Below are positions 8,596 through 11,959 of a stretch of 64,000 nt of DNA, piece by piece. The translations under genes were made by a program, and so were the position numbers. How positions within the stretch are numbered: the stretch's first letter is position 1; the number at the start of each line of letters is the position of its first letter. The notes beneath the pieces are model-generated. The model did not search any database and was not told where the DNA came from. It saw only the letters and a program-made list of their open reading frames with translations. The DNA lies in assembly GCF_055900595.2 (NCBI RefSeq), contig NZ_CM148325.1; one strand, written 5' to 3'.

Positions 8596-8612
8596 AACTT
8601 TCTGCTATAATT
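8596..8612 (+). promoter_or_regulatory. Candidate extended -10 promoter (TGcTATAAT)
   Basis: ctgctataat upstream of the KTSC-like gene with AAGGA RBS. Confidence 0.4.
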
Positions 8613-8627
8613 TAATAAGGATAAAAA

Positions 8628-8855
8628 ATGCCAGCTTATGCTAATAAAGGCGGTAATTCGGGTATAGTGTTTTATGAGATTACTCCAGATGCTATCACAG
8701 TACAGTTTAAAGATGGATGGAAATACGTTTACGATTCTACAAAACCAGGGGCTTCAACGGTCTCTAGGATGAAAGAGTTAGCCCAGGCTGGGCATGGGCT
8801 AAATAGTTTTATTAGTAGTGTGGTTAAGAAAAATTTCTCACGTAAATACCTTTAA
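8628..8855 (+). CDS. KTSC-domain-like small protein
   Basis: 75 aa with VFYEITPDAITVQFKDGWKYVY motif; good RBS. Confidence 0.55.
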   Translation: MPAYANKGGNSGIVFYEITPDAITVQFKDGWKYVYDSTKPGASTVSRMKELAQAGHGLNSFISSVVKKNFSRKYL

Positions 8856-9008
8856 TTTTAATTGAGGGTGGGAAGGACTATCACCCTCATAATTCTTCAC
8901 CATTCAATCAAGAGCAATTCAAGGTGATTTGCTCTGTACATAGTCGGTTAGTTAGCACTTCGTAATTTATTGAATAGAAGGCTTTTGGAACAGTATCTTC
9001 ACTCGTGC

Positions 9009-9257
9009 TTATCGCCCAGCAGATTTAGCAAGAATAGTCTCGAGCATTTCTGGTACGTTGCCTTTAGCATTGATAGTTGCTGTTCGGTAAGCTAGTTGAT
9101 TTTTTGAGAGATTGATTCCTGTAAGTGCTTCAATTTCGTTGCAGGCCTTACCCCATTCTACCCAGTTTTCAGACAAAAAAGATTCAAGATGATCCGCAAA
9201 TATAGCAATATCATTAGTAACTGTTGCAGCTGGAATATAGACTATGCGAAAAGCCAT
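9009..9257 (-). CDS. Hypothetical protein (82 aa), possibly Rem-like
   Basis: Clean 82-aa ORF convergent with the KTSC gene; size and position near hok recall Qin rem; no motif recognised. Confidence 0.4.
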   Translation of the reverse strand: MAFRIVYIPAATVTNDIAIFADHLESFLSENWVEWGKACNEIEALTGINLSKNQLAYRTATINAKGNVPEMLETILAKSAGR

Positions 9258-9579
9258 TGGTTGACTACTTCAATGTATCCTGTATCAACAATGAAAATGT
9301 CCGTTCTTCGCTCACAGAATTAGTGCGACAGCTTCGCACCAAGAGCTGACATTGTAATATCCGACAGGCTATTGCCTGTCAGTTAACAGTTACGTGTTAT
9401 AAAAGGTCAGGCGGGATCCTGACTAGGTGTGTTTAAAGAAGTGCTGGTGGTGAGCGGGTGTTGTGTCCAATTTCCACAGAAAAAAATCTGAGAAACTATA
9501 CCCAATAGTTGTATTGAATCACTGACGAGACAGCCTCATATTTATCAGGACTGGTGTACTTCCAATTCAGGAGGTTGTC

Positions 9580-9669
9580 GTGCTGGTTCTCAAATGTGCG
9601 CTAGCTATTGCGGCTGTAATGGCAATTTATTGTCTTGCTGTTGTTCTTACGGATCGCCTTTCTGATTGA
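9580..9669 (+). CDS. Candidate small hydrophobic peptide (29 aa, GTG start)
   Basis: AGGAGG at 9569-9574, 5 nt before GTG; encodes VLVLKCALAIAAVMAIYCLAVVLTDRLSD; absent from the ORF track because of size and GTG start. Confidence 0.35.
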   Translation: MLVLKCALAIAAVMAIYCLAVVLTDRLSD

Positions 9670-9823
9670 TTTTATATTGGCGAGGTGACGTGAGTTAAGT
9701 AGAATTGCTGCGGGTGCTTGAGGCTATCTGCCTCAGGCATGAACACCAACGGCAGATAGAGAAAAGCCCCAGTTAACATTACGCGTCCTGCAAGACGCTT
9801 AACATTAATCTGAGGCCAATTTC

Positions 9824-10036
9824 ATGCTAGACACATGTAGGTTAGCCTCTTACGTGCCGGAAGGCAAGGAGAAGCAGGCTATGAAGCAGCAAAAGGCGAT
9901 GTTAATCGCCCTGATCGTCATCTGTTTAACCGTCATAGTGACGGCACTGGTAACGAGGAAAGACCTCTGCGAGGTACGAATCCGAACCGGCCAGACGGAG
10001 GTCGCTGTCTTCACAGCTTACGAACCTGAGGAGTAA
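9824..10036 (+). CDS. mok: mok-like reading frame overlapping hok
   Basis: 70-aa frame that starts upstream of and reads through hok, as in hok/sok loci. Confidence 0.5.
   Translation: MLDTCRLASYVPEGKEKQAMKQQKAMLIALIVICLTVIVTALVTRKDLCEVRIRTGQTEVAVFTAYEPEE
9881..10036 (+). CDS. hok: Hok/Gef-family type I toxin
   Basis: 51 aa MKQQKAMLIALIVICLTVIVTALVTRKDLCEVRIRTGQTEVAVFTAYEPEE, Hok family (HokD/RelF-like as I recall it). Confidence 0.85.
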   Translation: MKQQKAMLIALIVICLTVIVTALVTRKDLCEVRIRTGQTEVAVFTAYEPEE

Positions 10037-10106
10037 GAGACTAAGCGGGGGAGAAATCCCTCGCCACCTCTGATGAGTCAGGCATCCTCAATGCACCCGC
10101 GCTTAA

Positions 10107-10125
10107 CCCGCTTCGGCGGGTTTTT
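10107..10125 (+). terminator. Rho-independent terminator after hok
   Basis: cccgcttcggcgggttttt. Confidence 0.7.
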
Positions 10126-10140
10126 CTAGCATCTACCTGG

Positions 10141-10202: not shown

Positions 10203-10817
10203 ATGCAGAATTTATCTCAACAGTTGTTAGAAGCATATGACAAGGAGTGCCGCAAAGAGCTTTCGATCGCGTTAGCACAGGCTTATCTTCATTCGCATAT
10301 GAAGGCAAAAGAGTTTGGTTCTTTTTGGGCTCAAGCACAGTCATATTTGCGCTGGTTTTATGCCGATGCATTGCTTGAGAATGCGGCTAAGCGTGTGGGG
10401 CTGGATTTTGAAGTCGGTAGCAATGCTGCTAAAAATTGTAAACACATTGCGATTCACTCGAACAACTGGAAAATGACGGCACATCATTTATCGGGTAATG
10501 CGCCACTTCCTAAGCAGGCATTGTATAGAGCTGTTTACGCTAATCAAAATTATGAATTGAATTTTGGGGATGAAAATGCCGACTCCCTGGATGGGAGAGC
10601 GTCTGGTGGACATGTTTATATGTTACATGATGGCAGTAATCAGCACTTGTCCAAACTGAATTTAACTGTTCCTTCTTCGGATAATTACGGGATTCTTTAT
10701 ACTGAGTCTTTACCAATTATGACGATGGTAGAAGTTGAAGCAGAAAATGTGGATTCTGAGATTGAAGATAAAATCAAGATTCTTACCGAACAAATAATTA
10801 AATCACAGCAATCATGA
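10203..10817 (+). CDS. Hypothetical protein (204 aa), first gene of a two-gene accessory cassette
   Basis: ORF with AAGGA RBS; no recognisable domain; stop overlaps the start of the next gene (ATGA). Confidence 0.6.
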   Translation: MQNLSQQLLEAYDKECRKELSIALAQAYLHSHMKAKEFGSFWAQAQSYLRWFYADALLENAAKRVGLDFEVGSNAAKNCKHIAIHSNNWKMTAHHLSGNAPLPKQALYRAVYANQNYELNFGDENADSLDGRASGGHVYMLHDGSNQHLSKLNLTVPSSDNYGILYTESLPIMTMVEVEAENVDSEIEDKIKILTEQIIKSQQS

Positions 10818-11959
10818 GCATGAATATCGCACAAACACCATTTACTGATAAATCGTTTAATCCTCGTCGCCTTGAGGAGGCAAGAGAGGCAAAAGGGTTG
10901 ACGATGGCTGAACTTGCCAGAGTGCTCAATATTTCAAGACAAGCTATTTCGTCATTTGAGAAGGGGTTGAAGTCTCCCTCTGCTGATACACTTTCTGCAA
11001 TAGCCAAGGTGTTAGGATTTCCAGAACGATTTTTCTTAGCCTCCAGTGCTTCTCCATCTCTGGAGGGGGCGATTCATTTTAGAAGTCGTTCAACTGCGAC
11101 CAAAAAGGCTCGAGTTACAGGGAAAACACGTGGGCGTTGGGCGGCATTAATATTGGATGAATGTCTAAAATATGCTCAATTACCAGATGTGGTTCTGCCT
11201 GAATTCGATATTATTGATTTTGAGGTTCTGTCTCTATCTGATATTGAGGATATGTCCACCCAATTAAGGCGTTTTTGGGGGTTAGGTGATGGTCCAATAC
11301 TCAATTTAACTAGACTTGTTGAAAATAAAGGAATCGTGGTTTCTCATTTACCTTCTGGTGAGAAAGTTGATGCCTTTTCGTTCTGGCATAATGGGCGGCC
11401 TTTAATTATGTTAGATAGCTCGAAGACGGCTGTTCGCATGCGATTTAGTCTTGCTCATGAACTTGGCCATTTAATTATGCATAGGGCAGTGGAGGATGAC
11501 TACCTGAATGATAAAGAATTATTCGACCTGGTGGAGTTGCAGGCCGATTATTTTGCCTCCAGCTTTTTAATGCCAGCCACCACTTTCGGGCGTGAATTTT
11601 ATAGTCCAAATTTATCAGCGTTAGAACGATTAAAACTACGTTGGATTACATCTATCGGTAGTATTGCCATGAGGAGTCATAGCCTTAAGTTAATCAGCGA
11701 TAATCAGAAAAGCTATATATTTAAGCAATTAGCGCCATTCCATCGTAGGGAGCCGTTAGATGATGCAATCCCAAAAGAAGAGCCTGAGTTACTTAATAAG
11801 TTACTTTTACTTCTTGATAAGCATTCAATCATAAAGGTAACTGAGTTAACTGATATCTTTGCTCTTCCCTTAAATGAGTTATCTGCAATTACACGATTTA
11901 AAGAATCAGATATGATTCATTCTGACAATGTTATTTCATTTACCATAAAACAAAAATAA
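10814..11959 (+). CDS. HTH_XRE - ImmA/IrrE (COG2856, M78-like) zinc metallopeptidase fusion protein
   Basis: N-terminal XRE HTH (LTMAELARVLNISRQAISSFEKG); HEXXH motif HELGHLIMH at 11456-11470 followed by ELQADYFASSFLMP, typical of ImmA/IrrE. Confidence 0.8.
   Translation: MSMNIAQTPFTDKSFNPRRLEEAREAKGLTMAELARVLNISRQAISSFEKGLKSPSADTLSAIAKVLGFPERFFLASSASPSLEGAIHFRSRSTATKKARVTGKTRGRWAALILDECLKYAQLPDVVLPEFDIIDFEVLSLSDIEDMSTQLRRFWGLGDGPILNLTRLVENKGIVVSHLPSGEKVDAFSFWHNGRPLIMLDSSKTAVRMRFSLAHELGHLIMHRAVEDDYLNDKELFDLVELQADYFASSFLMPATTFGREFYSPNLSALERLKLRWITSIGSIAMRSHSLKLISDNQKSYIFKQLAPFHRREPLDDAIPKEEPELLNKLLLLLDKHSIIKVTELTDIFALPLNELSAITRFKESDMIHSDNVISFTIKQK

Follow-up and report, generated by a model that had tools for sequence, protein, structure and literature searches.

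A conserved 29-codon reading frame next to hok in Escherichia lambdoid prophages and its probable product, a single-pass inner-membrane peptide

Results

The hok-proximal region of the prophage

The window, by which we mean the whole 64,000-nucleotide stretch of contig NZ_CM148325.1 (RefSeq assembly GCF_055900595.2) that was analysed, represents an E. coli lambdoid prophage with 99.9% identity to the chromosome of strain Ch1; the locus described here sits in the stretch that separates the replication genes from the DUF968/Q region. It consists of a small hydrophobic reading frame, termed ORF2 and in the form found here W type, and of a hokD/mok/sok type I toxin-antitoxin locus directly downstream. 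The individual features are:

9514-9542, plus strand: putative sigma-70 promoter of ORF2 (TTGAAT 9514-9519, 17-nt spacer, CATATT 9537-9542), proposed from consensus and conservation
9569-9574, plus strand: Shine-Dalgarno (SD) sequence AGGAGG, followed by the spacer TTGTC (9575-9579) and then GTG
9580-9669, plus strand: ORF2 (W type), 29 codons, GTG at 9580 and TGA at 9667-9669; product (f)MLVLKCALAIAAVMAIYCLAVVLTDRLSD, 29 aa, with one predicted transmembrane (TM) helix
9669-9698, minus strand: candidate antisense promoter TTAACT-18-TAAAAT (score 9/12), which would read back through ORF2
9670-9691, plus strand: 3' flank of ORF2, supplying the -35 hexamer of hok
9677-9705, plus strand: hok promoter from the promoter scan (TTGGCG 9677-9682, 17-nt spacer, TAGAAT 9700-9705)
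9692-10126, plus strand: hokD/mok/sok type I toxin-antitoxin locus (RefSeq hokD; Rfam sok RF01794, 115.8 bits; Pfam HOK_GEF, 3e-23)
9712-9886, plus strand: 5' region of the hok mRNA with the sok target (RF01794)
9824-10036, plus strand: mok
9881-10036, plus strand: hok (HOK_GEF)
about 10100-10126, plus strand: terminator-like hairpin of the hok transcript

A weak isrK-like Rfam match at 10045-10126 (26.1 bits; gathering score 50), which covers the 3' end of the hok transcript with its terminator, probably reflects nothing more than this hairpin. Directly after hok, a gene pair on the plus strand (10203-10817 and 10814-11959) matches the RosmerTA anti-phage defence system of PADLOC (RmrT, 7.5e-10; RmrA, 5.5e-102, with an HTH and an ImmA/IrrE-type peptidase); in other prophages, this slot is occupied by rem or other genes. 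On the other side, the segment from the DUF977 gene to ORF2 (about 8600-9420) and its equivalents in other prophage loci (L004-L009, L205, L206 and L214) form a hotspot of cargo swapping, with DUF2326, DUF4209, a TPR protein, QueH, methyltransferases, HigBA (HigB/HTH) or ORF6N/AntA depending on the prophage, and with ORF2 plus hok as the constant right-hand boundary.

A 29-codon reading frame behind a strong Shine-Dalgarno sequence

The first-pass annotation, made from the sequence alone, had pointed to an unlisted hydrophobic peptide of 29 aa, encoded immediately upstream of hok/mok by a frame with AGGAGG 5 nt before its GTG start. All of this was borne out: motif, start and stop lie at the coordinates given above, the frame carries no RefSeq annotation, and its stop codon is located 8 nt before the -35 hexamer of the hok promoter. 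The predicted single TM helix likewise found support, as the peptide (<60 aa) has a best 19-residue Kyte-Doolittle mean of 2.56, and AlphaFold, given a 34-aa homologue (class B, see below) and the family alignment, predicted one helix with a pLDDT of 88.6. AGGAGG followed by a start codon after 4-8 nt occurs at seven sites in the whole window, and the six sites other than that of ORF2 open ORFs of 97-699 aa. Shuffled windows contained 0.01 hydrophobic ORFs of 25-60 aa behind such a site, and these two counts together exclude a chance origin of ORF2.

W-type ORF2 is unannotated in every matching RefSeq record; in a few GenBank records it appears as 'membrane protein' or 'conserved hypothetical protein' (e.g., ACT39199.1 of REL606 and ACT43394.1 of BL21(DE3)). 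PGAP omits it, yet annotates the class-B homologue as hypothetical protein WP_001278450.1. The Pfam, NCBIfam, PHROGs and PADLOC profiles gave no credible match for ORF2, for its class-B relative or for ORF1, a second small frame introduced below, and Rfam gave no match on ORF2 itself. Full-text literature searches with peptide strings and accessions returned no match either, and ORF2 is not mentioned in the Hok papers and small-protein surveys that were searched, including a Hok-locus survey from 2025-26. A nested Cys-rich ORF in the +2 frame (9594-9665, MCASYCGCNGNLLSCCCSYGSPF) was rejected as a side effect of GYT-rich codons, since its omega is 1.45 and stop codons interrupt it in further alleles.

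Promoter-like element, leader and 3' flank

In all 137 W-type loci, which span at least six unrelated upstream families, the start codon is preceded at -43 (+/-2) by a (C/T)ATATT hexamer, and TTGAA(T/G) precedes this hexamer by 17 nt in about 90 of the loci. The resulting promoter site of ORF2 scores 8/12 consensus matches, under the cut-off of the scan tool. Transcription is predicted to start at about 9549, which gives a leader of about 30 nt, and an SD sequence at fixed distance, GGAGG (or GGAG/GGGGG), is found in all W-type loci. Neither the diverged locus L205 nor class B, whose gene is part of an operon, has the promoter-like element. Directly upstream of the putative -35 hexamer and beside an A7 run (9481-9487), there is a perfect inverted repeat, AACTAT-ACCCA-ATAGTT (9494-9510), which is conserved in the main W-type subfamily only and could be an operator or activator site or, on the minus strand, a weak antisense terminator.

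The window scan found no terminator-like site between the ORF2 stop codon and the hok promoter, so that read-through from ORF2 into hok is likely. Other hok loci become similar to the window sequence only from about 9692 onward, and about 18 nt of the 3' flank stay with ORF2 in loci where hok is absent; in this type of locus, the -35 hexamer of hok is thus provided by the 3' flank of ORF2. The hok promoter is thereby a hybrid, with its -35 from the ORF2 flank, everything from the -10 onward from the common hok module, and the joint in the spacer at 9683-9692.

Conservation and distribution

The ORF region (9540-9692) is present in 1889 of 5426 complete E. coli genomes with 77-100% identity. 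An IMG/VR search anchored on an invariant 17-mer of the hok mRNA yielded 142 loci, a sample unbiased for ORF2 since the anchor sits in the hok mRNA; ORF2 was found in 47 of them, while 95, including the 933W type, lack the W-type ORF start. The 44 loci from this sample that were aligned comprise 32 distinct haplotypes, all with an intact reading frame. A second, ORF-anchored scan provided 125 evaluable loci; the full 90-nt stretch was covered in 123, and the frame was intact in 122 of these, with 21 peptide variants. In a few loci (L041, L048, L081 and L106), ORF2 has been truncated by recombination. The ORF thus proved to be conserved in related prophages, where it evolves under purifying selection (see below). 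One lineage (L004/L025) uses ATG instead of GTG and carries an in-frame deletion of 3 nt; the family indels seen, this one included, amount to -3, +3 (L205) and +6 nt (L206) and all preserve the frame, unlike the non-coding leader with its 1- and 2-nt indels. Further upstream, at least six unrelated sequence families can be distinguished.

At the protein level, a HMMER profile search of 1.84 billion representative proteins gave 22 matches (E = 5.5e-14 to 3e-4), all of them members of the ORF2 family. The family alignment shows invariant columns L, L, V, Y, L and L and near-invariant columns A, A, A, C and L; in the peptide, residues L8, V13, Y17, L23 and L27 are invariant, and C18 and L19 nearly so. 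The family was found in Escherichia lambdoid prophages only and is therefore young. A scan of a genome collection with a hok 5' motif gave matches that were mostly due to chance; the genuine hok loci that Citrobacter, Pantoea, Erwinia and Mixta do have are devoid of ORF2.

Directly downstream of ORF2, hok follows in 113 of the 125 ORF-anchored loci. The other 12 (about 10%), which belong to two diverged haplotype groups, have the promoter-like element, the SD sequence and an intact ORF2 in the absence of hok; their peptides end in LMERLSD, and a convergent gene of 114 aa follows. Conversely, many hok loci lack ORF2, including those of the 933W type, the R1 type, Citrobacter, Pantoea and Erwinia. 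Taken together, the hok-less ORF2 loci and the ORF2-less hok loci indicate that ORF2, although linked to hok, is not an obligatory component of the hok locus.

Selection on the reading frame

A one-ratio codon model (M0) applied to 14 sequences including the diverged members gave an omega of 0.26 (LRT 31.9, p = 1.6e-8 versus omega = 1), where the strong LRT hinges on a few diverged sequences; the analysis used a neighbour-joining topology and F1x4 codon frequencies, covered about 33 codons and ignored recombination. Shifting this alignment to frame +1 gave an omega of 1.73 and 22 stop-codon cells, and frame +2 gave 1.45 and 16 such cells, neither omega being significant. In the close W-type set alone, the selection signal is weak: variable sites are distributed 13/11/15 over the three codon positions, and 19 synonymous and 24 non-synonymous variants were observed versus 13.3 and 29.4 expected. 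Just 0.3 stop-creating variants would be expected among these 43, so that intactness among close W-type relatives says little. W-type sequences are about 92% identical to each other, and the adjacent hok promoter shows 90% identity. In the pairwise comparison of W type with class B, the synonymous excess was marginal (p = 0.085), which made the tree-based codon model necessary.

Diverged relatives and translation of a family member

In other hok loci, the position of ORF2 is taken by a 34-aa ORF that we refer to as class B, MSDDISLAMEGALAV(V/I)AVVGVYCLVVFLMDRLGN, also written MSDDISLAMEGALAVVAVVGVYCLVVFLMDRLGN. It shares 52-55% identity with the peptide of the window across helix and tail and occurs in 674 of 5426 E. 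coli genomes (about 12%), O157:H7 included. Its leader (AAAGGAGG followed by ATG) and its 3' flank are unrelated to those of the W type; only the coding part can be aligned. Two of the 22 HMMER matches represent intermediate forms, L205 (MLAALKGFVAILAVVAIYCLVVVLMDRLSD, +3 nt) and L206 (+6 nt), which have different upstream neighbours and likewise lie directly upstream of a HOK_GEF gene.

The class-B ORF corresponds to XECs145, a novel translated gene from a RIBOseq study of O157:H7 Sakai (Huecker et al. 2017, PMC5597208), in which it was predicted to encode an inner-membrane protein with one TM helix. In LB, this gene, located in a multicopy prophage region, reached an RNA RPKM of 79.1, a ribosome RPKM of 346.1, an RCV of 4.35 and a coverage of 0.99, compared with a mean RCV of 1.55 for short annotated genes in LB; the values in BHI were 121.3, 150.1, 1.14 and 0.84, respectively, and under the stress condition its translation collapsed, as did that of most genes there (PMC5597208). 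Hence a member of the ORF2 family, 52-55% identical to and distinct from the allele in the window, is transcribed and ribosome-covered in an O157:H7 lysogen in LB. Neither the W-type gene nor its association with hok is described in the literature that was searched.

The surroundings of class B hold further elements. Six class-B loci (L064, L065, L073, L076, L115 and L123) carry a perfect 24-bp palindrome, CCGATATGGGAATTCCCATATCGG, between ORF2 and the hok promoter, and the cassette of ORF2 and palindrome is bounded by direct repeats, GGGTAAAAACG. The palindrome is present as well in loci lacking ORF2 (L011, L014 and L032), and the 933W-type locus looks like the outcome of a deletion between the direct repeats. 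Moreover, the loci of the Stx-phage type contain, upstream of hok, a second unannotated family of TM ORFs, ORF1, with 25-27 aa and the pattern M(T/N)WPEAF...VY(S/V)ICRWG. It is found in phage 933W (L203, 1396-1479), in L010, L017, L023, L026 and others, and in the six class-B loci named above, where the gene order is ORF1, ORF2, hok; the ATG start of ORF1 and the stop of the DUF551/L0139 gene in front of it share the overlap ATGA. According to hhalign, ORF1 and ORF2 show no relationship (probability 3.7%).

Discussion

The reading frame of ORF2, its start position, its SD sequence and its amino-acid sequence are conserved, and the frame is under purifying selection. With high probability, ORF2 is a genuine protein-coding gene. 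Our preferred reading, to which we assign a probability of roughly 65%, is that ORF2 is an independently expressed, single-pass inner-membrane peptide of 29 aa, belonging to an unnamed family of 28-34 aa in Escherichia lambdoid prophages. According to this model, the sigma-70-like promoter TTGAAT-17-CATATT would give rise to a transcript with a leader of about 30 nt, from which the strong SD sequence and the GTG start would direct translation, such that ORF2 would constitute an independent unit, with its transcript probably continuing into hok. The peptide would then insert into the inner membrane as one helix, flanked by K5 at one membrane face and by the acidic tail (T/M)DRLSD at the opposite face. 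It would probably have its effect there, either through a partner in the membrane or on the integrity of the membrane itself, within the phage-host setting to which Hok also belongs. As candidate roles, lysis or release, host killing, and the exclusion of other phages come into question; HokW is reported to assist phage release (PMC8621323). Since about 10% of its copies are not followed by hok, ORF2 stands apart from the hok/sok RNA circuit and is not one of its working parts.

The first-pass annotation had likened the peptide to type I toxins or small membrane regulators. A small TM gene next to hok/mok is what we find as well, and the peptide may be a small membrane regulator; the type I toxin part is not supported, given that no conserved antisense promoter was found and that the flanks of the family branches are unrelated. 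Such a toxin would be a membrane-damaging peptide whose translation is held in check by a cis-antisense RNA, encoded by a module in tandem with hok/sok. Size, hydrophobicity and the single TM helix would fit this scenario, as would the immediate vicinity of a bona fide type I locus. In the allele of the window, the minus-strand TTAACT-18-TAAAAT at the ORF2 stop codon, together with the AT-rich palindrome at 9494-9510 and the T7 run at 9481-9487 read on the same strand, could mark the two ends of an antisense RNA about 180 nt long. However, this minus-strand promoter, the single sequence feature that could carry a type I arrangement, is weak and conserved in only 31 of 80 distinct family sequences; in most alleles the -10 hexamer reads TGAAAT, without the crucial A as its second base, and the ORF2 family shares no other antisense promoter. 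Since no conserved antisense-RNA promoter was found, the type I reading is unproven. In addition, the palindrome contains no G-C pair, most alleles have an interrupted T run, and class B, L205 and the hok-less loci have flanks that bear no relation to those seen here. A small hairpin of 6 bp can pair the SD sequence with ACUUCC in the allele of the window, but this pairing is mismatched in most alleles and the overall fold has a z-score of just -1.9. The peptide also lacks similarity to Hok or to other profiles, and the efficient ribosome coverage of the O157 homologue in a healthy LB culture would not be expected for a potent toxin. We therefore regard a type I toxin as unlikely. As a separate matter, pairing of sok with the ORF2 leader was considered and rejected, because it comes down to a mere CCAATT(T)CA resemblance that is lost in most alleles.

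Another conceivable scenario is that ORF2 serves as an accessory of hok, with either the peptide or the transcription and translation of ORF2 tuning Hok. This could happen via read-through into, or occlusion of, the hok promoter, with formation of a 5'-extended hok mRNA, or via binding of the peptide to Hok in the membrane, where it would act as a modulator or immunity factor; even when both routes are taken jointly, we consider such a role distinctly improbable. The tight arrangement speaks in its favor: hok directly follows in the great majority of loci, diverged members and class B hold the same position, the ORF2 stop codon lies 8 nt from a hok -35 hexamer that the ORF2 flank itself provides, and no terminator was found in between. 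A further point is an 11-nt complementarity between positions 9528-9538 in the putative promoter spacer (AGACAGCCTCA) and 9719-9729 in the 5' element of the hok mRNA (TGAGGCTATCT), with 10 of 11 positions matching; yet the former segment lies upstream of the predicted transcription start, and the match could be due to chance. Against an accessory role stand the 12 loci from two diverged haplotype groups that keep ORF2 intact without hok, the 95 of 142 hok-anchored loci without a W-type ORF start, and the ORF2-less hok loci of the R1 type, Citrobacter, Pantoea and Erwinia. Class B, furthermore, places a spacer of about 60 nt with the 24-bp palindrome between the gene and the hok promoter, and the recent Hok-locus survey names no such partner. 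To the more specific proposal that ORF2 is a functional Hok partner (a membrane modulator, immunity factor or co-toxin), with class B representing a three-peptide membrane module of the 27-aa ORF1, ORF2 and Hok, we give little credence; if true, it would add a protein layer to a toxin system that is taught as purely RNA-controlled.

That ORF2 is no gene at all, the DNA being conserved because it serves the hok promoter from upstream or forms the fixed right-hand boundary of a cargo-swapping hotspot, and the frame being open only for lack of time among close relatives, could draw on the similar identities of W-type sequences and hok promoter, on the near-zero expectation of stop-creating variants, on the highly variable cargo upstream, which means that the region does act as a recombination boundary, and on the missing RefSeq call, but appears scarcely credible in view of an omega of 0.26 in frame versus >1 in the control frames, three of three indels in frame, an alignment of W type and class B that is confined to the coding part, a start codon and SD sequence kept despite unrelated leaders, the retention of ORF2 without hok, and ribosome footprints on a homologue.

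About one third of complete E. coli genomes carry the W type and another 12% its 34-aa relative, both nearly always joined to hokD/hokW. Studies on prophage hok genes (deletion, cloning, toxicity, recent Hok surveys) leave ORF2 out of account, so that some hok constructs and phenotypes could unknowingly include or omit a second membrane peptide. With its 29 codons and GTG start, dropped by PGAP and recognized as coding by comparative evidence alone, ORF2 is also a clean test case for the annotation of small genes. Should it modulate Hok, phage release or phage exclusion, prophage-host biology would gain a new player among its small proteins; otherwise, it is one more conserved microprotein without an assigned role.

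Comparison with known systems

Hok/Gef proteins (PF01848) resemble the ORF2 product in being small, with a basic residue near the N-terminus, one TM helix and a polar stretch (LVTRKDL in Hok, VVLTDRL in ORF2), and they are prophage-borne at the same locus. Nevertheless, ORF2 gave no PF01848 match at E <= 10; the idea of a truncated Hok paralogue was dropped, as hhalign against eight Hok sequences returned a probability of 1%. Hok has a periplasmic domain of about 25 residues with LCE...AYE, whereas ORF2 ends 6 residues past the helix. No mok-like frame overlaps ORF2, and the one match of the Rfam sok model, at 9712-9886, falls downstream of it. As to other type I toxins, TisB (29 aa), ZorO (29 aa), ShoB (26 aa) and Ibs (19 aa) share with ORF2 the length, the hydrophobicity and the single predicted helix, and they are controlled by a defined sRNA antitoxin and by long structured 5' UTRs that block translation (see also PMC3919570, PMC8309996). 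ORF2 deviates from them by its leader of about 30 nt, its exposed strong SD sequence, the lack of a conserved antisense promoter among the sequences searched and the translation of its homologue in unstressed cells.

The closest relative is XECs145 (WP_001278450.1), which has the motif ALA..AV...YCL.V.LMDRL and the single-helix design in common with ORF2 and is likewise encoded directly upstream of a hokD-type locus. It differs from the W type by five extra acidic residues at the N-terminus, an ATG start, the absence of its own promoter-like element, an operon context after a DUF551 gene and a second TM ORF of 27 aa, and the 24-bp palindrome that separates the gene from the hok promoter.

Beyond toxins, prophages carry 'moron' genes for small inner-membrane proteins, such as HK97 gp15, which mediates superinfection exclusion, and the host has small membrane regulators such as MgrB, AcrZ and KdpF. 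ORF2 is not known to resemble any of these in sequence, and no terminator of its own was found. It is nonetheless short and has a single TM segment, as do moron proteins and regulators of the MgrB type, and, like a moron, it is carried by a lambdoid prophage as an added unit that has a putative promoter in front of it, expression in the lysogen having been shown for its homologue.
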